Below are positions 5,351 to 59,882 of a stretch of 64,000 nt of DNA, piece after piece. Made by a program: the position numbers and the translations under genes. The stretch is from assembly GCA_016699085.1 (NCBI GenBank), contig CP064958.1, positions 345,375 through 409,374 of the forward strand, read 5' to 3'. Under the pieces are notes generated by a model. The model had not been told where the DNA came from. It saw only the letters and a list, made by a program, of their open reading frames with translations, and made no database searches. Origin of the DNA: Candidatus Nomurabacteria bacterium (GTDB taxonomy: Bacteria > Patescibacteriota > Minisyncoccia > Phycocordibacterales > UBA9973). Each line of letters starts with the position of its first letter. The stretch's first letter is position 1.

Positions 5351-5364
5351 AATAAAATTTTTCT

Positions 5365-5892: not shown

Positions 5893-5974
5893 CTTATATA
5901 TTTTTTTCTCGAGAAAAAAATTATTTGTCCTTCGAGATACTCAGGATAAATAATCCTAGTTTTTTTCAAAGGAA

Positions 5975-13233: not shown

Positions 13234-13824
13234 TTACTTGTCTGACTTAGGTTTGGTGATGATTTCGTCTACGATGCCGTACTTGAGTGCTTCTTCGGCG
13301 CTCATGAAGAAATCACGTTCGACATCTTTTTCGATTTGTGCAAGTTTCTGACCAGTATTTTTTGCCATGATTTGATTGAGCTGATGCCGTGATTTGATGA
13401 TGTGCTTAGCAGAGATCTCAATATCGGTTGCTTGGCCTTCAGCGCCGCCGCTCGGCTGGTGAATCATGATCTCAGAGTTAGGAAGTGCGAAGCGTTTGCC
13501 TTTGGCACCACCAGAAAGGAGAAATGCTCCCATTGATGCAGCCATGCCAACACAAATCGTTGAAATATCAGGTTTGACGAAATTCATCGTGTCATAGATT
13601 GCAAGACCTGAAGAAATCACACCACCAGGAGAGTTGATATAGAGACTAATATCACGCTTGGGATCTTCATTGGCGAGGAAGATGAGTTGCGCGATGACGA
13701 TGTTTGCAACATGATCATCAATGACGCCGCCTAAGAAAATAATGCGCTCGCGAAGCAGTCTGGAGTAAATATCGTAGGCTCGTTCGCCGAATTGTGATTT
13801 TTCAATAACAGTAGGAATCAACAT
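13234..13824 (-). CDS. clpP: ATP-dependent Clp protease proteolytic subunit
   Basis: [34 protein letters not shown] ... [11 protein letters not shown] ... IMIHQPSGG: canonical ClpP with Ser-His-Asp context. Confidence 0.95.
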
Positions 13825-13875
13825 GGTTAAATTAATTATTTAGTAATTGGTCATATAAAACGTCGTACTATATCG

Positions 13876-13930
13876 TCTCGCCCCGTACGAAGTTTTGTGT
13901 GCGTCTGAGATGAAGCTTTCGTTCTGGGGT
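13876..13930 (+). repeat. bipartite GC element, copy 1 (TCTCGCCCCGTACGAA-32 nt-GTTCTGGGGT)
   Basis: 13-16-nt GC box identical to copy 3 and to the reverse complement of copy 2; same spacing to a GGGGT box. Confidence 0.7.
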
Positions 13931-14101
13931 AACTGTTGGGATTAACATATAGGTAAAAGGTAAGGTTAAACTTGATTAGTAACAGATTAAGTATAGCAAA
14001 ATAGGGCATTCTGAGGGACTTGACAGAATAGGGTATAGTATGCTATGATATAGGCACAAATTGTTCCCGTTTAATTTCATAAAAACAAAAAAAACATAAA
14101 G

Positions 14102-14852: not shown

Positions 14853-14907
14853 TACATAAAGTAATCAGTGGCAAGTATTTTACTTCTGTTCTTCAAGAAA
14901 CTTAAAC

Positions 14908-14958
14908 ACCCCAAACAAAATAACGGTTAATAAATAACCTATTTCGTACGGGGCGAGA
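14908..14958 (-). repeat. bipartite GC element, copy 2 (inverted orientation)
   Basis: reverse complement reads TCTCGCCCCGTACGAA-29 nt-GTTTGGGGT; lies 42 nt 3' of the tig stop codon in tig sense orientation. Confidence 0.7.
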
Positions 14959-14999
14959 AGTGATCGATGTTACTTATTCAACTTAGCAATTTCAGAGGT

Positions 15000-16088
15000 T
15001 TATTTGAGCCCTTCTAGGAAACTAAACACTTTTTCATTCCTAAGAATATTCTCAACATAGAGCTCTGCTTGGAGCGGATCAGCATCTTTGTACATATCCA
15101 TAAGTTTCTTTACTTCGGTATCAATGTTTTCTTTTGGTACGGTAATATTTTCGACTTGGGCGATTTTGTTGAGTGTAAGCTCAAGTATTGCTCGGCGCTC
15201 GGCATCTTTTCTCCATTCCTCACGAAGAGATTCCTTGGTCTTCTTTACGTGCTTCAAGTAGTCGTCCATATTGAGTCCCATATTTGAAATGTCGCTCTCC
15301 ATGCGGTGGAACATTTTATTGAGTTCAGCTTCAATTAAAATTTCAGGTACATCGACTTTGACACCATCGATGATTTTCTCAACTGCTGCAATGCGTTTCT
15401 TCTCTTCTTCTTTATTCTTTTTCTCGAGTAGGATATTTTCTCGAATTTTTTCCTTGAGCTCATCAGCTGTTTTAAAATTACCAACAGCTTGGGCGAAAGT
15501 ATCATCAAACGGCGGCAATGCTTCCTCCGTTAATTCTGGATGATTGTGCTCATGCGATTCGCTAGTGTCGTCTTTGTGAAGTTCTTGATGGGCGCGCATT
15601 TTCCTGAATTCAAGTATTGCATCGTCGACTTCCTTCTCGGTTACTTCTGCCTTCACTTCTTTGCTAAAAGCCTCCGTAGCTATCTTTTTATAGTCGGGTA
15701 AGGTGAGCTCAGGCAGTACGGCGGTGCGGATTTTGAAACCGAGGGGATTATCTTTGGCAAGCTTGGTAATCATGATTTCAGGCCGGCCGATAGCGTCGAT
15801 CTTCTCACTCTCCAGGATTTCTGGATAGTGTTTTGCCATGGCAAGTTCTGCCATTTCCTCAAGGATCGGCATGTCGCCGATTTGTTTGCGGAATACATCA
15901 ACAGGGACTTTGCCTTTACGAAAGCCAGGCATTTCGAAATTTGCGAGCAAATGCTCGATAGCTTTGGTTTCGAATGTCTTGAATTCTGCTTCAGGTATTT
16001 CACCTTCGATCTCAATTCTGCTTTTTTCTAGTTTAGTGATTTTTGGTTGCATGGATTCGAGTGTACTTGGGAGAAGTGTTTTTGTCAA
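15000..16088 (-). CDS. tig: trigger factor
   Basis: N-terminal ribosome-binding signature PGFRKGKVP, PPIase and C-terminal chaperone arms; 362 aa. Confidence 0.85.
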   Translation of the reverse strand: MTKTLLPSTLESMQPKITKLEKSRIEIEGEIPEAEFKTFETKAIEHLLANFEMPGFRKGKVPVDVFRKQIGDMPILEEMAELAMAKHYPEILESEKIDAIGRPEIMITKLAKDNPLGFKIRTAVLPELTLPDYKKIATEAFSKEVKAEVTEKEVDDAILEFRKMRAHQELHKDDTSESHEHNHPELTEEALPPFDDTFAQAVGNFKTADELKEKIRENILLEKKNKEEEKKRIAAVEKIIDGVKVDVPEILIEAELNKMFHRMESDISNMGLNMDDYLKHVKKTKESLREEWRKDAERRAILELTLNKIAQVENITVPKENIDTEVKKLMDMYKDADPLQAELYVENILRNEKVFSFLEGLK

Positions 16089-25926: not shown

Positions 25927-25940
25927 GCAAAAAATATACT

Positions 25941-28962: not shown

Positions 28963-28966
28963 TTTT

Positions 28967-29563
28967 ATGTCAAAAGGATTTACACTTATTGAATTGCTTG
29001 TAACCCTTGCTGTCATCGGTATTGTGGTTACGATCGTGGGAAGATTTAGTGGTGATACATTTTATTTTTCAAATATCTTTTCACATTCACTCAATACTTC
29101 TGATCAAGCGCGCCGTATTCTAAGGCCGATGGCGGATGAAATCAGATCAATATCGCCATCATCAGCTGGGGCATATCCAATTGAGCAAGCTGCATCAAAT
29201 GCATTTATTTTTTTCTCTGATATAGATAATGATGGACTCAAGGAACGTGTGCGATACTATGTAAGTGGTACACTACTGAAGAAAGGTGTCACTAAACCAA
29301 CAGGTAATAATTTTACATATGATCCTAGCTCGGAAGTTATTATTGATGTTGTTGAGGGTGTCCAAAACGGTGCGAGTCCAGTTTTTGAATATTATGATAC
29401 TAACTATGATGGCACAACGAACCCATTAGTGCAGCCAGTTATCATTTCAACTATACGGCTAGTGAAGGTCACCTTTATTATTGATGAAGATGTCAATCGA
29501 ATGCCGGGTCCGATGACAGTAATGACTCAAGTCTCAATGAGAAATCTTAAAGATAATTTATGA
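28967..29563 (+). CDS. prepilin-type pseudopilin
   Basis: MSKG|FTLIELLVTLAVIGIVV canonical N-terminal methylation motif. Confidence 0.7.
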   Translation: MSKGFTLIELLVTLAVIGIVVTIVGRFSGDTFYFSNIFSHSLNTSDQARRILRPMADEIRSISPSSAGAYPIEQAASNAFIFFSDIDNDGLKERVRYYVSGTLLKKGVTKPTGNNFTYDPSSEVIIDVVEGVQNGASPVFEYYDTNYDGTTNPLVQPVIISTIRLVKVTFIIDEDVNRMPGPMTVMTQVSMRNLKDNL

Positions 29564-39937: not shown

Positions 39938-40109
39938 ATATGATGAATTGCCTATAGGGCTGGTCTTAATCGGTTAATAATAATTATTATAATATATTTT
40001 CCAGAAAATGCAATAGGTGACGAGTAGATGTTCTAATAGCTTCATGTTTGTATATTTTCCAAATAGAAAAACAAAAAATTTTTATTTTGCATATGCTACA
40101 ATCTTCTCT

Positions 40110-41765
40110 ATGAAAACTACAGATCTAATTGATCTTCTACTAGAAAAACGCGGTATTACTGGTGTGCAAGATAAAGAAATGTTTCTGCATCCTTCATATG
40201 AGCGCGGTATGCATGACCCCATGCGAATGAAAAATATGGAACGTGCAGTGGTACGGCTCTATGAAGCTATTGAAGCAAAACAAAAAATTGTTATTTATGC
40301 TGACTATGACTGTGATGGTATTCCGGGTGCGGTAATGATGCATGATCTCCTAACCAAAATCGGTTACACGAATTTTTCTATTTATATTCCAGACCGACAA
40401 GATGAAGGATATGGACTCCATATGGATGCGATTAAACAATTTATTATCGAGAAAGTTGATTTACTAATTACGATCGATTTAGGGACGACCGCTGTCGCTG
40501 AAGTTGCCGAAGCTCAAGCAAATGGTATCGATGTCATCATTACAGACCATCACCTGCCGCACGGCGATCTGCCGAAAGCATTTGCCCTGCTTAATCCAAA
40601 GCAGGAAGGCGATACATATCCATATCCTATGCTTGCAGGTTCTGGAGTTATTTTTAAGTATATCCAAGGGTTTCTTTTTAAATATAGAGAATATTACAAG
40701 ATTCCAAATGGTTTTGAGAAATGGCTGCTTGATATGGCTGGACTTGCAACACTCGCTGATATGGTGCCCTTAACTGGGGAAAATCGAGTGATTGCATATT
40801 ACGGACTTATGGTTTTACGCAAATCAATGCGCCCAGGACTACGTGCACTTTTTTCACATCTTAAAATTGACCAGCGACATCTGGCTGAAGATGATATTAC
40901 ATTTATGATTACCCCTAGGTTGAATGCCGCATCTCGTATGGATTCTCCAATGCGAGCATTTGAACTTCTATCCGAAACTGATAAAACTAAAGGCAACTTG
41001 CTTGCATTACATCTTTCGAAAATTAATGATGAGCGTAAAGTGTTAGTTGCTCAAATTATGAAAGATGCCTATAAACATTTGGAAAAGCGCGATCTAGGTC
41101 AAGTTATTGTGATAGGGAATCCTTCCTGGCGTATTGGTGTGCTTGGTCTTGTTGCGGGCAAGCTCTGTGAAGTATACAAGCGACCAGTCTTTGTCTGGGG
41201 AAGAGAAAGTCATGACGGGTCAACGACACTCAAAGGCTCATGTCGAAGCGATGGTAGCATAAGCGTTGTAGAACTCATGCAGGCAAAAGAGTCTCTCTTC
41301 CTTCATTTTGGTGGACACGAAGCATCAGGTGGATTTTCTCTGGAAGAAGCAGGGATTCATTTTCTTGAAGAACATTTAACAAAAAGCTATCTCTCACTTG
41401 CGAAAGATACCTCAGAATCGAACGTGGTCTATGATGCGCAATTGGCTGTATCAGATATAACATCCAAAATGCATACAACACTCGCAGAGCTTGCGCCGTT
41501 TGGCTGTGAAAACCGTAAGCCTACGTTCTTGTTTTCTGGAGTAATAGTAGAGCGTGTACGGCAATTTGGTAAAGAAAAAAATCATTTAGAACTACACGTT
41601 AGTGATGGTAAACGTAGTATAAAAGCTATAGCTTTTTTTACAACAGCAGATACTTTTGATGTAAGTATTACAGAAGGTTCGTGTATTGATCTGGTGGCGA
41701 CTGTTGAACTCTCGTATTTTGGTGGTCAGTCAGAATTACGCTTACGAATAGTTACTATCCAATAA
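40110..41765 (+). CDS. recJ: single-stranded-DNA-specific exonuclease RecJ
   Basis: DHH motifs (IYADYDCDGIPG, ITDHH), DHHA1 domain (GGHEASGGFS); start at 40110 (MKTTDLIDLL), track ORF is 5'-extended. Confidence 0.85.
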   Translation: MKTTDLIDLLLEKRGITGVQDKEMFLHPSYERGMHDPMRMKNMERAVVRLYEAIEAKQKIVIYADYDCDGIPGAVMMHDLLTKIGYTNFSIYIPDRQDEGYGLHMDAIKQFIIEKVDLLITIDLGTTAVAEVAEAQANGIDVIITDHHLPHGDLPKAFALLNPKQEGDTYPYPMLAGSGVIFKYIQGFLFKYREYYKIPNGFEKWLLDMAGLATLADMVPLTGENRVIAYYGLMVLRKSMRPGLRALFSHLKIDQRHLAEDDITFMITPRLNAASRMDSPMRAFELLSETDKTKGNLLALHLSKINDERKVLVAQIMKDAYKHLEKRDLGQVIVIGNPSWRIGVLGLVAGKLCEVYKRPVFVWGRESHDGSTTLKGSCRSDGSISVVELMQAKESLFLHFGGHEASGGFSLEEAGIHFLEEHLTKSYLSLAKDTSESNVVYDAQLAVSDITSKMHTTLAELAPFGCENRKPTFLFSGVIVERVRQFGKEKNHLELHVSDGKRSIKAIAFFTTADTFDVSITEGSCIDLVATVELSYFGGQSELRLRIVTIQ

Positions 41766-44323: not shown

Positions 44324-45841
44324 ATGAAGAAAAAACTCTCCATGATTATGATTTGCATTTTCGCAATGACTGTGCAAATTTCATTTGCTCAGGAAGCAGC
44401 TTTCACCGTCAGTAAGGCCAATCCCTGTATGAAGCAGGATTCAGTTATTTTCACCGATCAATCGACTGGTGATATCACCGAATGGTATTGGAGTTTCGGC
44501 GGAGGTACTCCATATAGCCATTATGGCCAAACTCCTCCCAAAATTCATTTTGATTGGGCAGGTAGTCATCAGGTGTGGCTTACCATAACTACAAGTGATG
44601 GATATCAACACCAGACATCCCAATATATAAATGTCAGTGAATTGCCAGCAGCGATGTTGGACCAAAATAATTTAAGTAATAACTGCCCTGGGACAGAAGT
44701 TACATTGTCTTCATCGCAAACTATGGAGAAATTTGAATGGTTCAAAGAGGACTCACTTATTTCCTCTGGTCTTGTAAAAACCATATCCGTAACTGAAACA
44801 GGTGAATACGAGCTTTATGTAACGGATGCAAATGGTTGTCGATCCCAGTATGGAGATGACATATATGTTCCATATTATCAGGAAATGATTGTTATCATGG
44901 ATGGTTGGGGGCCAACAGGCGGAATGGAAAACGGGGAACTAAGTAATTGCTATAGTTCACCTGGAAGTTTGAATGCACAGGTATACAATGCCTGGGCGCA
45001 GCCACTTACCTTTGTATGGAATGGAATTGATACAACATACTATTCAAACTATACACCAACAGGTACGGGTGATTATTCAGTTCAGGTCACTGATCAAAAT
45101 GGCTGCAAAGCAAAATCTGAAACTGTCCATGTAACGACGCATCCAACCCCAATCATTGCAATTAATGCATTGAATGGCACAAGTGCATGTTACGGTGATA
45201 GTCTGTTGTTGACCGTTCCAAATTCCTGGTCCTCATACCAGTGGAATTACGGCTCAACGAATAGTGTCATGTATGCCATGTGGAGTGGAAACTATAGTGT
45301 GACAGTAACTGATATGTATGGTTGCATAGGTATGGATAATATAGATCTAAACTTTATGCAACCACCCCAGGAGCCAAATATTTTTCCGGGTGATGGGTGT
45401 ACACTTGCGACAGATGGAATCGATGGAGTGCAACAGTGGTATGTCAATAATGTTGCTATTGCGAATTCAGATACGCCATACTTATTTATCAATACTTCCG
45501 GTTTTTATACCGTGGAAGTTACGAATACGAATGGTTGTATTTCTGAACGATCCAATCCGTTTTGGGCAAATTGCTCAGTAACAGGAATTTTGGAGCTTCA
45601 ACCAACAATTGAGTTTATGGTGTATCCGAATCCAGCAACAGATGTGATCAATATTTCACTGCCAATTTCGGATGATTATACAGTTGAACTCATTAATATG
45701 GTTGGCCAACATGTTTTTGACTTGCAAAACCAACAAGGTTTGGTAAATGTTCATCGACCAAATATTCCACCTGGTCAGTATTTACTAAAAGTTTCTGACA
45801 AAGATGGAATCAATACAGTGCAGCAAGTGATTTTCAATTAG
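44324..45841 (+). CDS. secreted protein with T9SS-type C-terminal sorting-domain-like tail
   Basis: signal peptide; Cys-rich repeated beta modules; C-terminus MVYPNPATDVINISL ... MVGQHV ... IPPGQYLLKVSDKDGINTVQQVIFN. Confidence 0.6.
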   Translation: MKKKLSMIMICIFAMTVQISFAQEAAFTVSKANPCMKQDSVIFTDQSTGDITEWYWSFGGGTPYSHYGQTPPKIHFDWAGSHQVWLTITTSDGYQHQTSQYINVSELPAAMLDQNNLSNNCPGTEVTLSSSQTMEKFEWFKEDSLISSGLVKTISVTETGEYELYVTDANGCRSQYGDDIYVPYYQEMIVIMDGWGPTGGMENGELSNCYSSPGSLNAQVYNAWAQPLTFVWNGIDTTYYSNYTPTGTGDYSVQVTDQNGCKAKSETVHVTTHPTPIIAINALNGTSACYGDSLLLTVPNSWSSYQWNYGSTNSVMYAMWSGNYSVTVTDMYGCIGMDNIDLNFMQPPQEPNIFPGDGCTLATDGIDGVQQWYVNNVAIANSDTPYLFINTSGFYTVEVTNTNGCISERSNPFWANCSVTGILELQPTIEFMVYPNPATDVINISLPISDDYTVELINMVGQHVFDLQNQQGLVNVHRPNIPPGQYLLKVSDKDGINTVQQVIFN

Positions 45842-45905: not shown

Positions 45906-47396
45906 ATGCAACGATATTTACTTTTTATCGTTATGCTTGCATTTGGTATTGGCATACTAACAGCTAGTTATGTTCCAATACCTATAAATATACTCTGTAT
46001 ATTTATAGGTATTGGTGTACTCCTTTTCTTTTTACAATTTGTATTTCAAAAGCGCAAAAATATTTTCCTTCTCATTTCAATACTCCTGCTTGCTTTTACC
46101 ATTGGCATAGTTCGTACACAGTTTGCGATTATAGGCATACCACCCTATTTAGAAGAATTAGTAGGGGATAATGTCTCGTTTACTGGAGAAATAATTGCAA
46201 AACCAGATGTGCGAGAATCGAGCACGCGGTTAATAGTGGAGAGTACTAATCTTGTGCCAGATGAAAAAGTTAGATTACTTGTCGTTGTTGGTCCTTATGA
46301 AAATATTTCTTACGGGGATACGCTTAAAGTTACAGGCATAGTCGAGACGCCAGAAAATTTCCAAACCGATCAAGGCAAAGAATTTGATTACGTTTCCTAT
46401 CTCGGCAAAGACGATGTGTATCTCATAGTACCGAAAGCAAAGGCGAGTGTTATAGACACTCGCCCACGTTCGCTCCTTAAGATGTTGTACAACATCACTG
46501 ACCGTTTTAGTAATGTTATTAGTGACGCTGTTCCTGCGCCCGAAAGCACATTTGAACAAGGTATTCTTTTGGGGGCAAAGTCTGGATTATCCCAAGAGTT
46601 GCGTAATGCATTTATTACGACAAGTACCATCCATATTGTTGCCCTGTCTGGCTACAATGTATCAATAGTTGCTCGCGCAATTGAAAACATCTTCTCATCT
46701 TTCCTCTCTCAAACATTCGCACTTAGCTTAGGGGGGTTAGGCATCGTACTGTTTGTACTGGCAACTGGTGCACAAGCAACGGCAATCAGGGCAGGTGTGA
46801 TGGCGCTCTTGGCAATTATTGCCAAGCGTACTGGACGGACGTACATGATTACTCGTGCGCTTTTTATTGCTGGTGCATTGATGCTTCTTTGGAATCCAAA
46901 ATTGCTTGCATTCGATGTATCATTCCAGCTTTCTTTTATTGCAACAGCGGGAATTATTTGGATAACACCAATTCTTCTACAGAAACTTTCATGGATCCGT
47001 ATTTTGTGGTTCAAAGACATAATTGCAACAACAATAGGGGCTCAAATTGCTGTTGCGCCGCTCATACTGTATAAGATGGGCACCTTTTCTTTGATTGCAC
47101 TTCCAGTCAATATTATTATCTTGCCATTTATTCCTATCGCGATGTTGCTCGGATTTTTTATTGGGGTTATTGGACTTGCGAGTCCCGTGCTCGCCATGCC
47201 ATTTGGCTATTTGTTGTACCTATTACTCCATAGCATACTTTTTATTGTGGTTACTGCGAGTCATATTCCTTTTGCAATGGTTGTTGTGTCGCATTTCCCG
47301 TTCATACTGGCATTGATTCTGTATCTGGCACTTTTGTATTGGCTTTATCGGACGCACCGAAATAGAAGTAATGAAATAAAAGACACTGCATTTTAA
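45906..47396 (+). CDS. comEC: competence protein ComEC/Rec2, N-terminal part (DUF4131 + channel domain)
   Basis: polytopic membrane protein, OB-fold region then ComEC competence-domain TM bundle; no metallo-beta-lactamase domain in this ORF. Confidence 0.7.
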   Translation: MQRYLLFIVMLAFGIGILTASYVPIPINILCIFIGIGVLLFFLQFVFQKRKNIFLLISILLLAFTIGIVRTQFAIIGIPPYLEELVGDNVSFTGEIIAKPDVRESSTRLIVESTNLVPDEKVRLLVVVGPYENISYGDTLKVTGIVETPENFQTDQGKEFDYVSYLGKDDVYLIVPKAKASVIDTRPRSLLKMLYNITDRFSNVISDAVPAPESTFEQGILLGAKSGLSQELRNAFITTSTIHIVALSGYNVSIVARAIENIFSSFLSQTFALSLGGLGIVLFVLATGAQATAIRAGVMALLAIIAKRTGRTYMITRALFIAGALMLLWNPKLLAFDVSFQLSFIATAGIIWITPILLQKLSWIRILWFKDIIATTIGAQIAVAPLILYKMGTFSLIALPVNIIILPFIPIAMLLGFFIGVIGLASPVLAMPFGYLLYLLLHSILFIVVTASHIPFAMVVVSHFPFILALILYLALLYWLYRTHRNRSNEIKDTAF

Positions 47397-48080: not shown

Positions 48081-48941
48081 ATGTCACACAGGTATACATA
48101 CCTATCTATAGGATTTGGAACGTTACTTTTTGTTATTTGGTTTTTTATTTTGCAAAGTTTGCCCCACGATTCAGGTAAACTCAAAGTTGCCTTCTTAGAT
48201 ATCGGACAAGGGGATGCAATTTATATTGAGGCACCCAATGGCAATCAAATGATTATCGATGGCGGACCGGGGATTGCACTTATGAATAAATTGCCCGAGG
48301 TGTTGCCATGGGGTGACAAAACTATCGATACAGTTGTTATTACCAACCCAGACGCAGATCATTATTCAGGTCTAATTCCTTTATTTGAACAATATGCAGT
48401 TGCTTCAGTTGTTGAACCTGGCACGCGTTCAGAGACATCGCTCTATCAAACGCTTGAAGAGCATATAATTCTAGAACATGTGCCTCATCTACTAGCGACG
48501 CGTGGAATGGAGATTATACTCGATAGTGAGAAACATATTTCCTACGAGATCCTTTTCCCGGATCGTGATGTGTCTACCTGGGAAACTAATGACGGATCAA
48601 TCGTCGGCAAACTCACCTATGGCGATACATCATTTCTTCTTATGGGTGATGCCACCATACTGACCGAAGGTATTGTCGTTGCTGAAAATAAAAATACGCT
48701 TGATACTATTGATGTTCTCAAGCTTGGTCATCATGGTTCGCGGACATCATCTGGCAATCCGATTCTTACTGCGACGACACCTGATGTTGCGATTATTTCT
48801 GCGGGATTGAATAATAAATATGGTCATCCACACCAAGAAGTCATTGATCGATTACTAGCTTTGCATATTCCATACCTTACAACATTCAAAGAGGGAACAA
48901 TTATCTGCGAGAGTGATAGTATGGATATTATCTGTCAGTAA
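48081..48941 (+). CDS. ComEC-type metallo-beta-lactamase domain protein (C-terminal ComEC module as separate gene)
   Basis: TM + FLDIGQGDAIYIE ... NPDADHYSGL ... LKLGHHGSRTSS motifs characteristic of the ComEC MBL nuclease domain. Confidence 0.7.
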   Translation: MSHRYTYLSIGFGTLLFVIWFFILQSLPHDSGKLKVAFLDIGQGDAIYIEAPNGNQMIIDGGPGIALMNKLPEVLPWGDKTIDTVVITNPDADHYSGLIPLFEQYAVASVVEPGTRSETSLYQTLEEHIILEHVPHLLATRGMEIILDSEKHISYEILFPDRDVSTWETNDGSIVGKLTYGDTSFLLMGDATILTEGIVVAENKNTLDTIDVLKLGHHGSRTSSGNPILTATTPDVAIISAGLNNKYGHPHQEVIDRLLALHIPYLTTFKEGTIICESDSMDIICQ

Positions 48942-50990: not shown

Positions 50991-53141
50991 ATGGAACGAG
51001 ATTATCCGTTAGAGAAAGTAAGAAATTTTGGTATTATCGCCCACATTGATGCGGGTAAAACAACGACAACTGAGCGTGTCCTTTACTATACCGGTGTGTC
51101 ACACAAGATCGGCGAGGTGCATGACGGCGAAACAACGACTGACTGGATGGAACAAGAGCGCGAGCGTGGTATCACGATCACGTCTGCTGCGGTGACTTGT
51201 TTCTGGACGCCAACGTATGCATTGACTGACAAAAATAAAAAGCATCGTTTCAATATTATTGATACCCCAGGTCACATCGACTTTACGGTTGAAGTAAAGC
51301 GCTCCCTCCGTGTGCTCGATGGAGCTGTCGTTGTGTTCGATGGTGTTGCTGGTGTTGAACCACAATCAGAAACCAACTGGCGTTATGCTGATGAGGCAAA
51401 CGTCCCTCGAATCTGTTTCATCAACAAACTTGACCGAACCGGTGCATCATTTGAACATTCCTATGCAACAATCCTTGATCGTCTTTCCAAAAAAGCTGTT
51501 CGTGCACAAATTCCAATAGGACTTGAGGAGAAACATGAAGGCGTGATTGATCTCCTTCGTATGAAGGCCTACTACTTCGAAGGTGAGATGGGAAATAAAG
51601 TTATCGAAAAAGATATTCCTGAAGAATATAAAGCTGATGCGGAGAAATACCATAGTGAGCTTATCGAGAAAATCGTCGAGCAAGATGATGCAGTCATGAA
51701 TGAATATCTCGAAGGCAAAATTCCTGATTTTGATATGCTTAAGAAATTGCTCAGAAAAGGCGTGATTGCCAACAATGTATTTCCAGTCTTTGCTGGAAGT
51801 GCACTCAAGAACAAAGGCGTGCAACTCGTTCTCGATGCTGTTGTTGACTATCTCCCAGCACCTACCGATATTCCGCCGATCCCAGGTATCAATCCTGATA
51901 CTGATGAAGTGACGGAACGCAAAGCGTCTGACGCGGAACCATTTGCAGCGCTCGCATTTAAAGTTGCTACTGATCCATTCGTCGGACAGATTATTTTCTT
52001 CCGTGTGTACTCAGGTACACTTGAAGCCGGCTCATATGTCTATAACCCACGTACTCGCAACAAAGAGCGCATCGGCCGAATTCTTCGTATGCATGCCAAC
52101 GATCGAGAAGAAGTGAAGAAAGTCTATGCCGGAGAAATTGCGGCAGCTGTTGGACTCAAAGATACGATTACGTCAGACACGCTCTGTGATCAAGAAAAAC
52201 CTGTTGAGCTTAACCGTATCGTCTTCCCTGAACCAGTTATTTCGCTACGAGTAGAACCAAAGACCAAAGCTGACCAAGAGAAAATGGGTATGGCACTTAA
52301 CCGTCTTGCCCAAGAAGATCCGACATTCCGCGTATCTACTGATCAAGAAACAGGAGAAACGATTATTGCTGGCATGGGAGAACTACACCTTGAAATCATC
52401 GTTGATCGTATGAAGCGCGAATTTGCTGTGGAAACCAATGTTGGCAAGCCACAAGTTGCCTACCGAGAAACAATTACCTCAGAAGCTTCAGCCGAAGGCA
52501 AGTACATCAAGCAGTCTGGCGGCCGCGGTAACTATGGTCACGTCAAAATCAAGATCAAGCCAATGGATATGTCACTTACCAAAGAAGACATTGAAGATTT
52601 ACCAAAGAATACCAAGCGTGAACCACATTTCGAATTCATCAACAATATCAAAGGTGGCGCGATTCCGCAGGAATATATTCCACCAGTTGAGAAAGGCTTC
52701 CGTGAAGGACTTGATCGGGGAATTCTTGCAGGGTTCAAAATGGTAGATGTTTCTGTTGATCTCTGGGATGGTAGTTTCCATGAAGTTGACTCGAACGAAA
52801 TGGCCTTCAAAATCGCAGCATCGATGGCTATCCAAGACGCAGCCAAAGCTGCTAAGCCTGTCATCCTTGAACCTATGATGAATGTTGAAGTCGTGACCCC
52901 TGAGAAATTCATGGGTGATGTAACTGGAAGTCTTTCTGCAAAACGTGGACTTATCGAAGGCATGGAAGATCGAGGTATGAATAAAGTTGTTCGTGCTATC
53001 GTGCCGCTATCTGAAATGTTCGGCTACATGACCAATCTCCGTTCGATGACTGAAGGTCGGGCAGGATTTACTATGGAATTCATCCGGTACGATATCGTAC
53101 CTGCTAACGTTGCGGAAACAATTATTGCTGCAAGGAAGTAA
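50991..53141 (+). CDS. fusA: elongation factor G
   Basis: G-domain [24 protein letters not shown]; 716 aa full length. Confidence 0.97.
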
Positions 53142-53168
53142 AAGCGTACGCAAGTTTATATAACAACA

Positions 53169-53223
53169 TCTCGCCCCGTACTAAACAATCTGCGCATTCG
53201 GCAGGTTGTTTTGGTTCTGGGGT
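53169..53223 (+). repeat. bipartite GC element, copy 3 (TCTCGCCCCGTAC-32 nt-GTTCTGGGGT)
   Basis: 27 nt after the fusA stop; same boxes and spacing as copies 1 and 2. Confidence 0.7.
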
Positions 53224-53266
53224 GCCACAAAACGTCGCTGAGACGATCATTGCCGCAAGGAAATAA
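53219..53266 (+). pseudogene. decayed duplicate of the fusA 3' terminus
   Basis: translates [15 protein letters not shown]-stop versus the fusA end [15 protein letters not shown]-stop. Confidence 0.65.
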
Positions 53267-53280
53267 AATTTACATAAACA

Positions 53281-53310
53281 AAAATCTCCCCAAACAGGGG
53301 AGATTTTTGT
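53281..53310 (+). terminator. rho-independent terminator
   Basis: AAAATCTCCCC-aaaca-GGGGAGATTTTT. Confidence 0.8.
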
Positions 53311-53359
53311 TTATTGACATTTATGATAATTTGTGATAATCTAAGCAAAACTTAAAAAT

Positions 53360-54133
53360 ATGAAAAATAAAAGACTTCCTTTTATCATCTTGGCACTGGC
53401 TGCCATTGCTACGATTATTTTTTTCGCTGTCTCCTGCTCCAAGGAGAAAAGTATTGTTGATTTGGTGAACGATATTGAACCGGTTCATCGGTTAGATAAT
53501 CGTTATACATCTATCCTGGATACGTTATCAACAATGACAGACAAAGGCAAATTGGAATATATTAACAAACAGTGGCCAACACTCGGAAATGATGTTGTTT
53601 ATTGGGTAAGAAACTATTCTGATGATATGCCTGCATATTCTCGAATTTCAAAAACTGCAAGAATTGATTCTGTGGTCTTACTTTTCGGTAGTGGAAAAGA
53701 TGCACAAGGCAACGATGCAAATGGGAATATGCATGATGGCGGAATATTTGATAATGATCTAATTGCCGCAATTTATGTTCACGGAGAAAAGGATCCTCAC
53801 AAATATTTCGTACAATGCACCAATGGTATGAGCTATCCGGTAGAAACATCAAATGTTCGGAGAATTGGTCGCATAAAATATGGAAGTGAATTTACCATCG
53901 GAGAGGGAGAAGGATTCTGTCACTATATATCCTTTGATGTTGGGATTGACTTAGGACGTGAGTGCGGAATTAAATTTTATGAAGGGAGAATTCAAACCCC
54001 AGAGCATGAAATATCATATGAACGTGCATGGGAATTGAGAGATCAAACTGATGATATACAGGTTACGGCTGGATTGAAAAAAGGAGATTATTTTAACCTT
54101 ACTACCAGGAAGTGCAAACTGGTTCCCAGATAA
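53360..54133 (+). CDS. putative lipoprotein, hypothetical
   Basis: lipoprotein signal MKNKRLPFIILALAAIATIIFFAVSC. Confidence 0.45.
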   Translation: MKNKRLPFIILALAAIATIIFFAVSCSKEKSIVDLVNDIEPVHRLDNRYTSILDTLSTMTDKGKLEYINKQWPTLGNDVVYWVRNYSDDMPAYSRISKTARIDSVVLLFGSGKDAQGNDANGNMHDGGIFDNDLIAAIYVHGEKDPHKYFVQCTNGMSYPVETSNVRRIGRIKYGSEFTIGEGEGFCHYISFDVGIDLGRECGIKFYEGRIQTPEHEISYERAWELRDQTDDIQVTAGLKKGDYFNLTTRKCKLVPR

Positions 54134-54153
54134 ATTTGCTATTTTAAATGGCA

Positions 54154-54182
54154 AAACCCACCAATTAGTTTGGTGGGTTTTC
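54154..54182. terminator. bidirectional terminator
   Basis: AAAACCCACCAA-ttag-TTTGGTGGGTTTT. Confidence 0.8.
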
Positions 54183-54440
54183 TTTTGCGTCTTTTTTAGG
54201 TAATACGCCTTGTTCTTCGAGTTCCTTTCGTTTTTCTGGAGACATAAAATCTTTGGCTAACATGTCGCCTAATGCTTCGGGTGTAAGTGGTTTATCCTTG
54301 ATAAATTTACCTTTTTCATAATTAAAAATTTCTCTTTTGTCCATACATATATTGTATAGCGGCATATACCACCGGTCAATCATTGTGATTGGGAAGCGCT
54401 TTACAATAAAACCAAGATACTTCATGATAGGAAAAACCAT
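54165..54440 (-). CDS. hypothetical protein
   Basis: 91-aa ORF, Lys/Glu-rich C-terminus. Confidence 0.35.
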   Translation of the reverse strand: MVFPIMKYLGFIVKRFPITMIDRWYMPLYNICMDKREIFNYEKGKFIKDKPLTPEALGDMLAKDFMSPEKRKELEEQGVLPKKDAKENPPN

Positions 54441-54459
54441 TATCTAAACAGGCAAGTAC

Positions 54460-54675
54460 ATGGAAAGTTCCAATAAAAAATACCATCAAGCATATGCAAT
54501 CGCTAGAGCATTGTATACGTTAATATATGTAGGAAGCCGTAAAATGTCTCCAGAAGTTTATATATGTATCGTTCAGGGTGTCAAAATGTCCCAAGGTACT
54601 CTTGCTGAAGAGTCGGAGTTCCCCGGTGTTGTAGAATTTTCTCATGAACTAAATTTAGCTTTGCAAAAAAAATAA
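54460..54675 (+). CDS. small hypothetical protein
   Basis: 71-aa ORF; terminator hairpin AAGAACCCCATGGGGTTCTT at 54817-54838 downstream. Confidence 0.3.
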   Translation: MESSNKKYHQAYAIARALYTLIYVGSRKMSPEVYICIVQGVKMSQGTLAEESEFPGVVEFSHELNLALQKK

Positions 54676-54887
54676 TTGGAAGGATATCTATCTCACCTAC
54701 ATGTTGCAAACTTTAGAAGGAGCCCCGGCAATCATCACCGAAGCGCAAATCAAGAGTTTAGTTATTCTTTTAAGAAATGTGAGGAATATACTAGAGAAAA
54801 AAATGTTGTCTTAGTTAAGAACCCCATGGGGTTCTTTTTATTGCAAAATACAATATTTATGTTATAATAAAATAAACTTTATTTGAC

Positions 54888-55289
54888 ATGCTAAAAACAA
54901 AACAAAACAAAGAGGCAGATGTTGCGGTGCTCAATCTATTTAAGGCACTGCGAAGACTGGTAAAGGGCGAGACTAAGAAATTATCAAAAGCAAACTACAA
55001 GAAACTTACTTCTGTAGTACGTTTGATGAATACCAAACCCACCGAGAATAATCTTGAGGTGGTGAAACAATCTTTCCTGAAGAGTATCAAAGGTGATCCT
55101 GACTATATTGGCTGCAATGAAACGTATTATTTGATTGAGACGTATACCCCAAAAGAATCGCTGGATTCAATTGTGAAGGAATTGCTCAATATATGTGGAT
55201 CTAAAGATTTCAAAGCCTCTGTGCTTTTACTTTGGAGCCAAACCATGCGCGATAAAGCGCTTGAAGAAAAACGAAAACTGACAAAATAA
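54888..55289 (+). CDS. hypothetical protein (first of a three-gene small-ORF operon)
   Basis: 133 aa, Lys-rich, no domain recognised. Confidence 0.4.
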   Translation: MLKTKQNKEADVAVLNLFKALRRLVKGETKKLSKANYKKLTSVVRLMNTKPTENNLEVVKQSFLKSIKGDPDYIGCNETYYLIETYTPKESLDSIVKELLNICGSKDFKASVLLLWSQTMRDKALEEKRKLTK

Positions 55290-55294
55290 GTAAC

Positions 55295-55678
55295 ATGGAA
55301 AATACGACATCACTTGCCCGATTACGAGTGGGCACAGCAAAAAATATTGCTTTTGGACTTGTAGAATTTATTGTTAACAAAAGGGGTATTTTGTATCCTA
55401 AGATAAAAGAAACAGTCTATCAGGCATTACATTTTATGGAGACTGAAAACGGTAAAAGTATTGAAGAATACCGACCTTGCAATACGGGCGCGCGAGAATT
55501 GGCTGAGTGGATGATTGATAGTGTGAGTCAATATCGTCGTGCTGCATTTGCGGCATATGTCCGTGCGAAGTTAAATAATGATCCGATTATTGCTAACGTA
55601 GAAGAGAAACAGATATTCAACGACGCCTTGGAAGATGTGTCGTATCAGCTAGCTTGTCAACTGAAACACACGAAGTAA
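55295..55678 (+). CDS. hypothetical protein
   Basis: 127 aa; 5-nt gap from the previous ORF. Confidence 0.4.
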   Translation: MENTTSLARLRVGTAKNIAFGLVEFIVNKRGILYPKIKETVYQALHFMETENGKSIEEYRPCNTGARELAEWMIDSVSQYRRAAFAAYVRAKLNNDPIIANVEEKQIFNDALEDVSYQLACQLKHTK

Positions 55679-55881
55679 TGCACAGATCCTTAGAACTTTC
55701 AAATGCAATGAGGGAAATTTTCCCTCAAGATTCTAAGAAAGATTTCTGGATTGAGTGTATACGAAGCAAACTCAGTCACCCACATATGAACAGTAATGCT
55801 CAAGAATGCACAGGTGATTTGCTTGTCGTGATGGAAAAAGTAAAAGATATTCTCCATCAGAGGCGAAAAGCATTTCTCTGA
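55654..55881 (+). CDS. small hypothetical protein
   Basis: 75 aa, overlaps the previous ORF by 25 nt; followed by terminator AATACCCC-ttctttct-GGGGGTATT (55888-55912). Confidence 0.3.
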   Translation: MSTETHEVMHRSLELSNAMREIFPQDSKKDFWIECIRSKLSHPHMNSNAQECTGDLLVVMEKVKDILHQRRKAFL

Positions 55882-55945
55882 TTGCTCAATACCCCTTCTT
55901 TCTGGGGGTATTTCTTTTTTACAGAAAATCTGTACACTGAACCAA

Positions 55946-56680
55946 ATGGAAAACGATATGAAAAAAATTAAAGGAATTGCATTGATCACAGGCGCAACTG
56001 GAGATATTGGCGGGGATGTGGTCGCAGAAGGCATTTCCCGCGGATACTTCATATTGGCGTTTGGGCGAAATCAAGATAAATTATTGGCGCTTAAAGATAA
56101 GTATCAAGACGCAATAGAAACAGTGTCGCTTGATCTTTCTGACGAGGCACATGTTGAAAGAATACTTAAGGATATGAATCAAAAGTATCCTAAGGTTGAT
56201 GTGCTGATCAATGGTGCCGGACTTTTTCGTTGGGATTATGAATACGGGAAGGCAACTGTGGATGAGAACAGGCTTGCGGCCATGGAAGACTTGATGGAGC
56301 AGAACTATACTTCAAAAGTTCGCTTCATGAAATATTTCAAACCGCTCTATCGTGGGCAGAAAGTAAAAGTGATAGATGTGTCATCTTGGGCCGCGCAGTT
56401 TCCGTTGTCGGATTTGATTATCTGGCCGGAATGGGGATATGTATTCTCAATGCGTTCTGTGTCTGCTCGAAACTTGAATTTACAGAAGCAGAATGATCCA
56501 ACTGATACGTTTAGTTACGATTTGATCGAGCCGAAACTCATTGATACGCCCAAAATGCGGGAGAATATGAAAGATGACTCCGAAGGTCGTCGACCAACAA
56601 TGCATGTCAATTGGGAAGTTGATGCTCAAAAGCCTGCAGCTCTTGCGAAAAATATCTGGGATCTAGCTGAACAAGAATAA
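55946..56680 (+). CDS. atypical short-chain dehydrogenase/reductase family protein
   Basis: Rossmann TGATGDIG and NGAG motifs; canonical catalytic YxxxK not evident. Confidence 0.5.
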   Translation: MENDMKKIKGIALITGATGDIGGDVVAEGISRGYFILAFGRNQDKLLALKDKYQDAIETVSLDLSDEAHVERILKDMNQKYPKVDVLINGAGLFRWDYEYGKATVDENRLAAMEDLMEQNYTSKVRFMKYFKPLYRGQKVKVIDVSSWAAQFPLSDLIIWPEWGYVFSMRSVSARNLNLQKQNDPTDTFSYDLIEPKLIDTPKMRENMKDDSEGRRPTMHVNWEVDAQKPAALAKNIWDLAEQE

Positions 56681-56868
56681 TCGAAATAAAATGCCTCGAA
56701 AACCTCGGGGCATTTTTTATTTATCTAAAACTCATTCTCACATTCTCAAGTATGTTGGCATGAGTTTTAGGTAAAAGAAAACCCAAGCGCATGTAGGTGT
56801 TTCATTTGACAAAAGCCCGTATTTCATTAGACTGAGTCTAAATTTCTTCATAGTAAAAATCAGTCACA

Positions 56869-57642
56869 ATGGAATCAAAATTTAGCCAGAAACAGCTGGA
56901 TGCTGCAAGAAAGAAAATCATTTTCGCGCTCGATGTGGATGATCTTAAAAAAGCTAAAAACATCATAAATGATTTAGGTCCCCATGTCGGAGGCATCAAG
57001 ATTGGTTTGGAGACTCAAACAGTTTTTGGTGGTCCAATTATGCTTGATCTGACAGAAAAGCAGGACGTTGATACATTCTATGATGGCAAGTTCAATGACA
57101 TCCCCGCTACCATTATTGGTGCAACAAAACCTCTCGCAAAACGTGGAGTCGGAATGTTTAATATCCACGCTACAAGTGGTAATGAGGCAATTAAAGCTGC
57201 AGTAAAAGCATGTGAAAGTGCAGGTTGTATTGTACTTGTTGTAACTGTGCTTACTTCCATTAGTCCTGAAGAATGCATGGAAATATTTGGCGATACTCCT
57301 GAAAACAAGGTGTTACAGTTTGCTCGTAAGGCAAAAGCAAATGGAGCTCATGGTGTCGTGTGTTCAGCAAAAGAACTTCCAGTGCTTATGGCGGATGAAG
57401 AAACTCATTCGCTTATAAAAGTGACTCCAGGTATTCAGCCTGAATGGATGCAAAAGAATGATCAACAGAGAGTTATGACACCCTACGAAGCGATCAAAGC
57501 TGGTGCTGACTATTTGGTGATTGGAAGAGCAATCAGTCAACCACCTAAAGATCACGAGTATATCCAAGGTGATTCTCTCAAAGCGATTGAACTCATCACT
57601 GAAGAAATCGCCAAAGCATTGAGTGAAATGAACATAGAATAA
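56869..57642 (+). CDS. pyrF: orotidine 5'-phosphate decarboxylase
   Basis: FALDVDD ... IKIGLE ... DGKFNDIPATI ... MFNIHATSG ... LVIGRAI match OMPdecase active-site regions. Confidence 0.75.
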   Translation: MESKFSQKQLDAARKKIIFALDVDDLKKAKNIINDLGPHVGGIKIGLETQTVFGGPIMLDLTEKQDVDTFYDGKFNDIPATIIGATKPLAKRGVGMFNIHATSGNEAIKAAVKACESAGCIVLVVTVLTSISPEECMEIFGDTPENKVLQFARKAKANGAHGVVCSAKELPVLMADEETHSLIKVTPGIQPEWMQKNDQQRVMTPYEAIKAGADYLVIGRAISQPPKDHEYIQGDSLKAIELITEEIAKALSEMNIE

Positions 57643-57662
57643 ATAATTAGATATCTAAAATT

Positions 57663-57695
57663 AAAATCCCCTAAAGTGAATCACTTTGGGGGATT
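57663..57695. terminator. bidirectional terminator between convergent pyrF and the PRTase gene
   Basis: AATCCCCTAAAGTG-aatc-ACTTTGGGGGATT + T-run. Confidence 0.8.
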
Positions 57696-57698
57696 ATT

Positions 57699-58475
57699 TT
57701 ATACTAGCACCTTAGCATCACGCATTGCTTGCATTAGTATAGGCCATTCGTCTTTTGTTTGAGTCACAATATTTCCATCCTTAATGTCTGCATAAACCGC
57801 AGGATCTTCTTGTACATATTCCACAAATGGCTTTTGCCATAAAGAATATACAGGGATAGTTTGTTCACCATGCTTGAATTCTGTCTTTACTGATGGAGAT
57901 CTATTAAATGCACCAACGATGGCGACAACTGTACCTCCATTTTTCTCAATCTCAGTAATGGTTTTTTCTGTGGTGCTGAAATTATTCAATACATCTTCAA
58001 CTATAACAGTCACATCGCCTTTCCGTATTGAATGCCGCGCAAAAGCCAGATTTGTTTCCTCACGTTCCTTTTCTGACCTTGCCTTCTTCACCTTTTTTTC
58101 AGCACATGCATACCTTTTTGTACACACAAGAGCAAGCATCAGTGCCAGCGCGATACCGCCCATTTGAGGACCAATAAATACTGTTATCTTTTCGAGCAAA
58201 GCAGGGCTAATTTCGCGTTTTAGTTGTGTAGCGAAGTAGTGTACTAATGTTGGATGTTCTTCGGCTTTGGCGAAGTTTATGTAGATGTCGCCAACATATG
58301 CTTTTTCTGTTTGGTCAGGAAGGGGGTATTTACCCGCATACGTGACTAATGGACCTAATCGTTTGCCACCTTGATCTTTCGGACATTCATAGAATCCATC
58401 GATCGCATGCATGATACTGATAGGATCATTTTTCTGGTCATTAACGATCTGCATAATAGGTTTTTCGTGTGCCAT
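57699..58475 (-). CDS. type I phosphoribosyltransferase (putative orotate phosphoribosyltransferase)
   Basis: PRPP-binding motif VTVIVEDVLNNFSTT; convergent with pyrF; 258 aa is longer than typical PyrE. Confidence 0.5.
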   Translation of the reverse strand: MAHEKPIMQIVNDQKNDPISIMHAIDGFYECPKDQGGKRLGPLVTYAGKYPLPDQTEKAYVGDIYINFAKAEEHPTLVHYFATQLKREISPALLEKITVFIGPQMGGIALALMLALVCTKRYACAEKKVKKARSEKEREETNLAFARHSIRKGDVTVIVEDVLNNFSTTEKTITEIEKNGGTVVAIVGAFNRSPSVKTEFKHGEQTIPVYSLWQKPFVEYVQEDPAVYADIKDGNIVTQTKDEWPILMQAMRDAKVLV

Positions 58476-58691
58476 AGGGAGTGTATTTGTGTTTTTTAAA
58501 TTTTTTTAAACTTTACCATAGTATGGCTTTATAGCAAGATTTAATCTGCTTTATAAAAATCAGGGGAGTAAGAAGCCTCCTGTCAAAGGACTTATTGACA
58601 AATATTTTCTATTTGCTAGGATGAGATGTAATCGCAATTTTGCGCCGTTTTTATTTAGTCTTTTTATTATTACTAGTAATTTTTTATTTCT

Positions 58692-59882
58692 ATGGCAGAA
58701 CTATTTAAGCGAGACAAGCCACACATCAATGTGGGCACTATTGGTCACGTTGACCACGGTAAAACAACTCTAACAGCAGCTATCCTCCATGTGTTACAGA
58801 TGGCTGGTAAAGAGGTGAAAATGAAGGGAGTTGGCGATATCGACAACGCTCCTGAAGAAAAGGCTCGTGGTATCACGATTAACATTTCTCACAACGAATA
58901 CGCAACAGACTCACGTCACTATGCGCATATTGACGCTCCTGGACACGCTGACTACATCAAAAACATGATTACCGGTGCAGCTCAGATGGATGGTGCTATC
59001 CTCGTTGTTGCTGCTACTGACGGCGCGATGCCACAAACTCGTGAACACGTGCTTCTTGCTAAGCAAGTCGGTGTTCCAAAAATCATCGTCTTCTTGAACA
59101 AAGTAGATATGGTTGATGATAATGACTTGGTTGATCTCGTTGAAGAGGAAATCCGAGAAATCCTTGCAAAACAAGGCTTTGATAAAGATTGTCCAATTAT
59201 CCGAGGTTCAGGCCTTAAGGCTCTTGAATCAACATCTATGGATGATCCATGGGCACAGAAAGTTATGGAACTCGTTACAGCTCTCGATACCTATATTCCA
59301 GTCCCAGAGCGTGATGTTACCAAGCCTTTCCTTATGCCTATTGAAGATATCTTTTCTATCGAAGGTCGAGGTACTGTGGTTACTGGTAAAATCGAACGTG
59401 GGATCGTTAAGGTTGGTGAAGATGTTGAAATCGTCGGTATCAAACCAACACTTAAAACGACCGTTACTGGTATCGAAATGTTCAACAAGCAACTCAATGA
59501 AGGTATGGCTGGAGACAATGCAGGTATACTTCTCCGTGGAACAAAGAAAGAAGAAATTACTCGCGGACAAGTTCTCGCAAAGCCAGGCTCAGTAACACCT
59601 CATGATAACTTCGAATGTGAAGTCTATATCTTGAAGAAAGAAGAAGGCGGCCGTCACACACCATTTTTCGCAGGTTACAAACCACAATTCTACATCCGAA
59701 CAACTGACGTGACTGGTGATGTTACGCTTCCAGAAGGTACTGAAATGGTTATGCCAGGTGATACGATCAAGCTCGTGGTTAAATTGGTTACTCCAGTTGC
59801 CCTCGAAGATCAGACACGCTTTGCAATCCGTGAAGGTGGCAAGACAGTTGGTGCAGGAGTTGTAACTAAGATCATCAAGTAA
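58692..59882 (+). CDS. tuf: elongation factor Tu
   Basis: [22 protein letters not shown]; 396 aa. Confidence 0.97.

Follow-up and report, generated by a model that had tools for sequence, protein, structure and literature searches.

The DNA analysed in this work (hereafter, the window) is a stretch of 64 kb from the genome of a Candidatus Nomurabacteria bacterium (contig CP064958.1, positions 345,375 to 409,374), in which the 3' end of fusA, the gene encoding EF-G, is found twice, with a short DNA hairpin embedded between the two copies. A block of eight genes follows, extending up to tuf. In the initial annotation, the second copy of the fusA end was regarded as the scar left by the integration of this block. 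The features located at the fusA 3' end are reported below (coordinates refer to the window).

50991..53141, + strand: fusA, intact according to its open reading frame (ORF) and translation; its last ~14 codons are part of the left repeat copy
53098..53169, + strand: left repeat copy, 72 nt, starting 72 nt before the hairpin and consisting of the functional fusA tail and a 26-nt 3' untranslated region (UTR) ending AACAACAT
53170..53222, + strand: 53-bp hairpin, CTCGCCCCGTAC…loop GCATTCG…GGTTCTGGGG, recognised by its fold and by the covariance model R1
53222..53266, + strand: displaced fusA tail, assigned by codon comparison and by the tails of relatives; the right repeat copy starts from T 53223
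53274..53314, both directions: bidirectional intrinsic terminator, an inverted repeat with an 18-bp stem and a T tract

The duplicated fusA tail

The fusA product shares 90% aa identity with that of the Ca. Nomurabacteria fusA in L001. The peptide of its tail is encoded a second time at positions 53219-53266, 77 bp beyond the fusA stop codon and out of frame with fusA. The repeat search disclosed 38 nt with 82% identity, the two copies lying 125 bp apart from start to start, and the peptide match scores 60, whereas shuffled versions of the block reach 41 at most; the repeat is thus far above chance. An identical sequence is present at the duplication in an independent assembly (L081). The interval between the two tails (79 bp) is made up of the 26-nt UTR and of the 53-bp hairpin only, which means that the GC element previously noticed there does exist and is, in fact, a structured hairpin, with an RNA fold of -29.4 kcal/mol (z = -3.3) and a score of 47.6 bits (E = 4e-12) with model R1. 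The terminator scan found no T tract at the hairpin, no Rfam match overlaps positions 53142-53222 at E <= 1, and the search for tRNA, tmRNA and Rfam families around the fusA site retrieved nothing relevant. A translational bypass or a readthrough into the second tail was considered and rejected, because this tail is out of frame with fusA.

The second copy is therefore real; its description as decayed, however, does not hold, since it differs from the functional tail by nine synonymous codon differences and just one replacement (A/Q; P = 2e-3 against decay in situ). Moreover, the displaced tail is nearer than the functional one to the tails of all the 12 nearest relatives (12/12). As an example, in the comparison with L001 the displaced tail matches at 30/42 positions and the functional tail at 24/42, and over the first 20 nt the matches are 19/20 and 14/20, respectively. 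In the relatives, a terminator is located after fusA at the same position that it occupies behind the displaced tail in the window. Since the displaced tail is nearer to the relatives and is followed by the terminator as in the relatives, the two together would represent the native, formerly functional 3' end of fusA (53222-53314), the terminator at 53274-53314 being likely the original fusA terminator, while the functional tail with its UTR and the hairpin (53098-53222) would have been imported. The displaced native tail is contiguous with the terminator and the block, which implies that the duplication event is later than the left edge of the block. The sliding identity of fusA versus the 12 relatives did not fall clearly at any point ahead of the last ~15 codons, so that no co-conversion tract can be delimited, these relatives being too distant.

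A family of hairpins at duplicated gene ends

Two further copies of the hairpin motif, TCTCGCCCCGTA…stem-loop…TACTGGGG, are found in the window, at a duplicated clpP head and at a duplicated tig tail. Model R1 retrieved exactly three high-scoring copies from the 64 kb (about 40-48 bits), each of them adjoining a duplicated gene end. The two additional copies are organized as follows.

13806..13948, + strand: second element copy, at the clpP head (R1, 48 bits)
13806-13876: left copy with the functional start MLIPTV… of clpP (13234-13824, - strand)
13877-13929: hairpin
13930-13948: displaced clpP head MLIPTV, on the - strand
14880..15028, - strand: third element copy, at the tig tail (R1, 39.8 bits)
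15028-14958: left copy with the functional tail …VFSFLEGLK*, whose stop is at 15000
14957-14909: hairpin
14909-14880: displaced tail VFKFLEEQK*, followed by a terminator

These two copies bracket the tig-clpP intergenic region, and a lipoprotein gene (14102-14800, + strand) lies between them. The clpP-head site is also occupied in L189, L119 and L195, and the tig-tail arrangement was found in L195 and in three other assemblies as well. Concerning fusA, tail duplicates with the hairpin motif are present in five other species-level genomes, i.e., L020, L021, L028, L046 and L068 (motif only in the last one); L021 harbors three fusA tails and two hairpins, and L028 harbors, besides the tail duplicate, a duplicated fusA head beside an inverted copy of the hairpin. 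The duplicate of the fusA tail, which the initial annotation had suggested searching for in relatives, does exist in other genomes; in those just listed it accompanies the hairpin motif, which also stands at clpP, tig and many other genes.

Over the fusA-centred loci (1.37 Mb), every match to the element lies at a fusA end, and the presence of the element among species is patchy. A scan of metagenomes for the hairpin yielded at least 120 loci; among the matches listed, 91 are unique well-folded hairpins, and a flanking repeat accompanies 60 of these under a strict test and about eight more by alignment. The target genes are hit either at their heads (tsaD/tsaB, with at least 10 loci, uvrB, lepA, fusA, rplB and clpP) or at their tails (fusA, htpX, ychF, a P-type ATPase gene, sodA, secDF, uvrA and tig). 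Scans of viral contigs gave no match at first and then 22 chance matches, all of them devoid of hairpin, prefix and repeat, which serve as a negative control for the family; on the basis of these scans, phages were rejected as the vector.

The element is 35-57 bp long and no ORF is present at any of about 70 copies. Its consensus can be written as (A[C/G]CACT)T-CTCGCCCCGTA[G/C]-variable stem-loop-TAC-T-GGGG, in which GCCCCGTA[S] is the arm pairing with [S]TAC(T)GGGG. The stem exhibits compensatory pairs and a conserved bulged T, and the observed covariation was reached by none of 500 shuffles (0/500). No description of this hairpin was found in the literature searched, and the family is apparently undescribed. 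An integron attC site was rejected, the ends being CTCGCCCCG…CTGGGG|T rather than RYYYAAC…GTTRRRY, with no integrase among the ORFs scanned; the template and variable repeats (TR/VR) of a diversity-generating retroelement were likewise rejected, given that the copies differ by all kinds of changes at third positions and that the scans of the block revealed no reverse transcriptase. The reading of the hairpin as an antisense regulator was also considered and rejected.

Other hairpins with a peculiar structure were observed. In L096 (1559-1630), a hairpin is nested within another one, and in L137 (8133-8330) a palindromic insert of ~130 nt is located exactly between the repeat unit and the hairpin. 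L113, L119, L159, L185 and L186 carry members of a variant family, whose left arm is CCTGCCCCGTAG. Lastly, L070 (12028-12322) carries after fusA an insert of 156 bp with two different GC hairpins and ~79-nt near-identical fusA-tail repeats on either side, which may represent a second family of long-duplication elements.

Within the main hairpin family, the order of the parts is always the same: gene body, functional end, an AT-rich spacer ending with A[C/G]CACTT, the hairpin (CTCGCCCCG…GGGG), a T and the displaced end. The element is oriented in the sense of the gene at tails and antisense to it at heads. The distance from the start of the left copy to the hairpin is 71 nt in 9 cases, 72 in 15, 73 in 24 and 74 in 14, that is, in 62/67 elements, whatever the gene, with a mode of 73; in the window, it is 72 nt at fusA and 71 nt at both clpP and tig. 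The coding share of the left copy ranges from 17 to 68 nt, and the hairpin stands 5-57 nt outside the ORFs. Left copies end, before the hairpin, with the conserved heptamer A[C/G]CACTT, which is absent from the ends of right copies.

In a few loci, the repeated unit extends into noncoding DNA. In L103, two clearly different hairpins are each preceded by the same 73-nt unit, UTR included, and a third copy has an unrelated UTR; in L096, two identical 71-nt units (71/71) are accompanied by an older third tail; in L137, 54 of the 73 repeated nt are noncoding; and in L200, 38 noncoding nt of the left-copy UTR share 75% identity with the native upstream sequence. In different contigs, the element is found joined to a given gene at one and the same nucleotide (four times in uvrB, three in the fusA head and four in clpP), and no strong target motif is present at the end where this junction lies. 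The element thus has the features of a miniature inverted-repeat transposable element (MITE): it is small, lacks ORFs, has terminal inverted repeats, occupies more than 60 distinct loci and is flanked by a duplication of fixed length, even though this length (73±1) is atypical.

The conservation of the stem with compensatory changes, with G·U pairs and the bulged U retained on one strand only, the location 5-57 nt outside housekeeping ORFs and the fixation in 4/4 assemblies of the species might also suggest that the hairpin is a signal beneficial to the host at the RNA or DNA level (involved in UTR stability or processing, or acting as a factor-dependent terminator), kept by selection at conserved genes with a high expression, the duplications being by-products of recombinational exchange. 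We consider this explanation quite improbable, since the conserved strand is antisense at gene heads, so that one RNA function cannot serve both heads and tails; moreover, the hairpin has neither a T tract nor an Rfam family, and its arrays, nested copies and patchy species distribution are typical of selfish repeats.

Probable origin of the functional ends and proposed spread of the element

The comparison of the two copies in 54 pairs revealed 189 synonymous and 79 replacement codon differences (P < 3e-17 against decay in situ). Some single pairs are even more skewed, such as the fusA head (11:0) and L021 (9:0), and L020 includes an AGC/TCT serine pair. In most pairs, the similarity is confined to the coding part; even pairs whose coding sequences hardly differ have unrelated UTRs. 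Where the host is richer in GC, the functional tail has a foreign composition and that of the displaced one resembles the host: the GC content at third codon positions (GC3) of the L020 gene is 0.73 in the body, 0.30 in the functional tail and 0.75 in the displaced tail, and the corresponding values in L046 are 0.55, 0.10 and 0.60. Two copies that are adjacent direct repeats with a hairpin in between could, in principle, be the outcome of slippage at a local hairpin, which would have duplicated the gene end in tandem and in situ without the involvement of any mobile element, the downstream copy having decayed afterwards. This possibility is hardly conceivable, because a divergence limited to synonymous changes is incompatible with the decay of a dead copy, the UTRs are unrelated, and the same conserved hairpin occurs at many genes in many genomes.

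In L094 and L171, fusA-tail elements share a homologous imported UTR (ATTCTCAYTTT…) and have quite different hairpin stems, which suggests a turnover of the hairpin or its re-insertion at the same CACTT site.

We propose, with fair confidence, that the fusA tail is duplicated because it flanks a MITE-like palindromic hairpin without ORFs, whose insertion would have duplicated ~73 bp of target DNA and which would then have spread between species by recombination. In a first step, an enzyme would insert the hairpin just 3' of a sequence resembling A[C/G]CACTT, duplicating about 73 bp of the target on the other side. Because the intergenic regions of Patescibacteria are short, a target of 73 bp usually spans a gene end, and such a long duplication would spare the invaded gene, a second, orphan head or tail of which would come to lie past the GGGG end of the hairpin. 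In a second step, to which the patterns of substitution and composition point, the resulting unit (gene end, UTR, hairpin and orphan gene end) would be homologous on both sides to a naive orthologue; after DNA uptake it would recombine into other species, the orphan copy providing the distal homology, the incoming gene end would become functional, and the resident one would be displaced with its own UTR and terminator. DNA uptake is plausible, since the Pfam scans of 30 window ORFs revealed PilB/PilC, ComEC and RecJ (40017-41765); a type IV pilus cluster is located at about 24145-31050. ComEC is seemingly split into a Competence/DUF4131 part (45906-47396) and a separate metallo-beta-lactamase ORF (48081-48941), with an ORF of 198 aa on the opposite strand between them.

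The element can be compared with several known systems. MITEs and other palindromic non-autonomous elements (Correia, RPE, ERIC) are tens of bp long, have no ORF, possess inverted repeats folding as a hairpin, and occur in multiple copies, mostly located at gene borders and with direct repeats on both sides. The element described here shares all these traits, being short, ORF-less, hairpin-folding, multi-copy, flanked by direct repeats and located at gene borders; however, its flanking duplication is fixed at about 73 bp instead of 2-10 bp, and its copies carry xenologous gene ends, which argues for a spread by recombination. We know of no autonomous insertion sequence (IS) matching the hairpin. 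The palindrome-associated transposable elements (PATEs) of the IS200/IS605 family and the REP/RAYT hairpins, mobilised by Y1 transposases of the HUH class, generate no target duplication and require two hairpin ends or a RAYT gene. The likeness consists in a strand-specific imperfect hairpin with an extrahelical T, in a GTAG/GTAC motif and, for IS200/IS605, in a short conserved motif directly 5' of the hairpin (A[C/G]CACTT here, TTAC for IS608); the difference lies in the ~73-nt duplication, and neither two hairpin ends nor a RAYT gene were seen, no Y1 HUH transposase (TnpA/RAYT) being present among the window ORFs scanned. In CRISPR adaptation by Cas1-Cas2, as well as in casposons, a short DNA is inserted at a defined site, a second cut is placed by a ruler and the intervening segment is duplicated. 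Arrays are formed on re-insertion, as in the unit-hairpin-unit-hairpin arrangement of L021, L096 and L103, but in our case both cas genes and a leader are missing, what is duplicated is ordinary gene-end DNA, and a conserved hairpin is inserted in place of foreign spacers.

A bacterial precedent for very long target duplications is represented by IS1549 and IS1634 (IS1634 family), which generate duplications of 8-514 bp (PMC2266710). Their variable repeats, nonetheless, flank DDE elements of 1.5-2 kb, whereas here 73±1 bp surround a hairpin of 35-57 bp, and no transposase of the IS1634 type was seen among the ORFs scanned. In the mobile ORFs (mORFs) of fungal mitochondria (atp6 in Allomyces; atp6, atp9, cox2 and nad3 in Glomus), a foreign C-terminus is inserted, the native one, which remains closest to the relatives, is displaced downstream, and the copies differ mainly synonymously (PMC3630166). 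Here too, a putatively foreign functional terminus stands beside a displaced, probably native one and the gene is kept intact; in the mitochondrial case, though, an ORF encoding a LAGLIDADG or GIY-YIG endonuclease is involved and C-termini alone are affected, while here there is no ORF, both heads and tails are hit and the length is fixed at 73 nt.

The similarity of the outcome to these mitochondrial hybrids (PMC3630166) raises the question of whether homing without transposition might account for the data, the hairpin being a remnant or a non-autonomous partner of an endonuclease element, or a recombination or uptake signal, spread by double-strand break repair or transformation, and the 73-nt spacing deriving from few founder events. 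In agreement with this idea, the same junctions recur in the same genes, the copies differ synonymously, L020 and L046 have functional tails of foreign composition and competence genes are present. We regard it, nevertheless, as not very likely: none of the about 70 copies has an ORF; a sequence-specific endonuclease would not reach so many unrelated genes, at their heads as well as at their tails; inheritance from founders leaves the 73±1 nt across unrelated genes unexplained; and the same applies to the L103 array, with its two different hairpins and its duplicated UTR.

Several observations weigh against insertion of the hairpin with a 73-bp duplication followed by recombination. No transposase, integrase or endonuclease was found in the 30 window ORFs and the block scanned, and no autonomous element having the same ends 0.1-8 kb apart and a matching 73-nt repeat was detected in the 2.1 Mb searched, where arrays only were disclosed. 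Few loci are young single insertions, and no empty-site allele of a young insertion was retrieved, the three other assemblies of the species all carrying the clpP and tig copies. To our knowledge, there is no precedent for a fixed 73-bp target duplication, and recombination through arms of 20-60 nt with about 80% identity is not classical RecA behaviour. The offsets of divergent members are 52 (L020), 64 (L028 tail) and 40 nt (L046) instead of 73, and A[C/G]CACTT may belong to the element itself instead of being a target motif, in which case the true duplication would be about 66-70 bp. The GC3 of L028 points the opposite way, over 11 codons only, and the coexistence of identical coding parts and unrelated UTRs needs an extra assumption, i.e., mismatch correction/repair or gene conversion. 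Finally, the direct evidence for a noncoding duplication comes from few loci, mostly arrays, which unequal crossing-over could also yield; this is disfavoured for L103, because its two hairpins are dissimilar.

If insertion and recombination did operate in this way, they would represent a new lifestyle for selfish DNA in tiny gene-dense genomes, where a long fixed duplication makes an insertion at a gene border harmless and the element could ride homologous recombination between species. The element might even belong to a class of bacterial mobile DNA not yet described, a proposal that we advance tentatively, in which a ruler-type enzyme would measure ~73 bp (7 helical turns) and the duplication would both shield the gene end and serve as a homology arm for cross-species homing, thus swapping gene termini and UTRs. 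The same model would point to an integrase with a 73-bp ruler, would account for the orphan "pseudo-tails" and "pseudo-heads" found beside core genes, and would provide a marker of inter-species recombination in uncultivated Patescibacteria that can be read from the sequence. It would also imply that the first or last ~15 codons and the UTRs of marker genes, such as fusA, tsaD, lepA, uvrB and clpP, can be xenologous.

The block between fusA and tuf

The terminator and the eight genes that had been recognised between fusA and tuf are all present, organized as follows.

53360..54133, + strand: lipoprotein-like ORF, 257 aa, first gene of the block; signal/lipobox-like N-terminus, no Pfam/NCBIfam family
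54165..54440, - strand: small convergent ORF, 91 aa; no Pfam/NCBIfam family
54888..55881, + strand: three small ORFs (133, 127 and 75 aa), operon-like, with no family; terminator at 55888-55912
55946..56680, + strand: short-chain dehydrogenase/reductase (PF00106, E = 2e-20)
56869..57642, + strand: pyrF, encoding orotidine monophosphate (OMP) decarboxylase (PF00215, E = 3e-41; NF001273, 195.5 bits with a cut-off of 193)
57699..58475, - strand: divergent pyrE-like phosphoribosyltransferase gene, convergent with pyrF (TIGR01367 pyrE_Therm, E = 4e-13, below cut-off)
58692..59882, + strand: tuf, assigned by its ORF; own promoter-like site at 58595-58622

The lipoprotein-like ORF has an identical protein in the same context in L081. 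Homologs of the pyrE-like phosphoribosyltransferase (with identity up to 50%) adjoin pyrF, pyrD or pyrC within ribosomal clusters in Patescibacteria; in L203, L205 and L207 (at about 5.4-9.8 kb in each) pyrD, pyrC-like, pyrE-like and pyrF genes are located between rplB and rpsS, inside the S10/spc cluster, the pyrE-like gene and pyrF being convergent there as in the window. The phosphoribosyltransferase being pyrE-like, it performs with pyrF the last two steps to uridine monophosphate (UMP), and the two genes do not represent an isolated pyrimidine step, as previously supposed.

The comparison of the fusA-tuf spacing in relatives proved informative. In 55 of them, the gap ranges from 102 to 9249 bp (median 887 bp), and in at least six tuf is absent within 10 kb of fusA. 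The 197 ORFs located in the gaps are almost never shared among the relatives and none is shared with the window; similarly, the eight block proteins gave no tblastn match in 80 related fusA loci. The block does not differ from its surroundings in composition, its tetranucleotide distance (z = -0.55 and -0.66) and its GC content (0.386) falling within the range of the window. Hence, the interval is indeed lineage-specific and variable, but the repeat does not represent a scar left by it: the copies flank the 26 nt and the 53-bp hairpin, and nothing matching them lies at the tuf end, where the analysis of positions 53267-58691 revealed no second att-like repeat, no inverted hairpin, no third fusA tail and no remnant of the tuf head. 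The block fills a hypervariable position of the ribosomal super-operon with genes typical of its lineage; this filling is specific to the lineage and shows no detectable integration scar. It is unrelated to the hairpin and the duplication, and the content of the fusA-tuf slot is rapidly renewed in Paceibacteria. Among relatives, two further gaps, rpsG-fusA and rpsJ-rplC, vary widely as well, the former measuring 7.4 kb in L001.

Integration into gene 3' ends with replacement of the tail is a known mode of insertion, in which the gene is reconstituted by the copy borne by the element, as for the islands mobilised by tyrosine recombinases. The block might accordingly have been an integrative island, inserted at the fusA 3' end by site-specific recombination with a replacement tail and having later lost its recombinase. 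Its absence from the fusA loci of the 80 relatives and the variability of the slot would agree with this scenario, and a geometry of the kind imagined in the initial annotation does exist in another genome: in L033 (12033-15371), a 3.2-kb insertion after fusA, bracketed by 104-nt direct repeats of the fusA tail with 97% identity, contains, besides a terminator, a membrane ORF of 84 aa and the gene for a secreted protein of 827 aa, and has no canonical hairpin. For the window, however, this origin of the block is very improbable: the repeats of tyrosine-recombinase islands bracket kilobases including the integrase, whereas here they bracket 79 bp, with no repeat or remnant on the tuf side; the Pfam and NCBIfam scans of the eight block ORFs found no recombinase or integrase; both the composition of the block and the displaced tail adjacent to it are native; and the hairpin with its duplication also accompanies clpP, tig and dozens of further genes.

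Outside the block, the first 6 kb of the window (1-6000) are its sole compositional outlier (tetranucleotide z = 3.3-3.8, GC 0.35) and contain the genes for tRNA-Pro, tRNA-Arg and tRNA-Gly, mscL and several ORFs without a family. Furthermore, the window codes for two secreted proteins (19131-20441 and 44324-45841) with a Por_Secre_tail domain (C-terminal sorting of the T9SS type), which is unexpected in a Patescibacterium.

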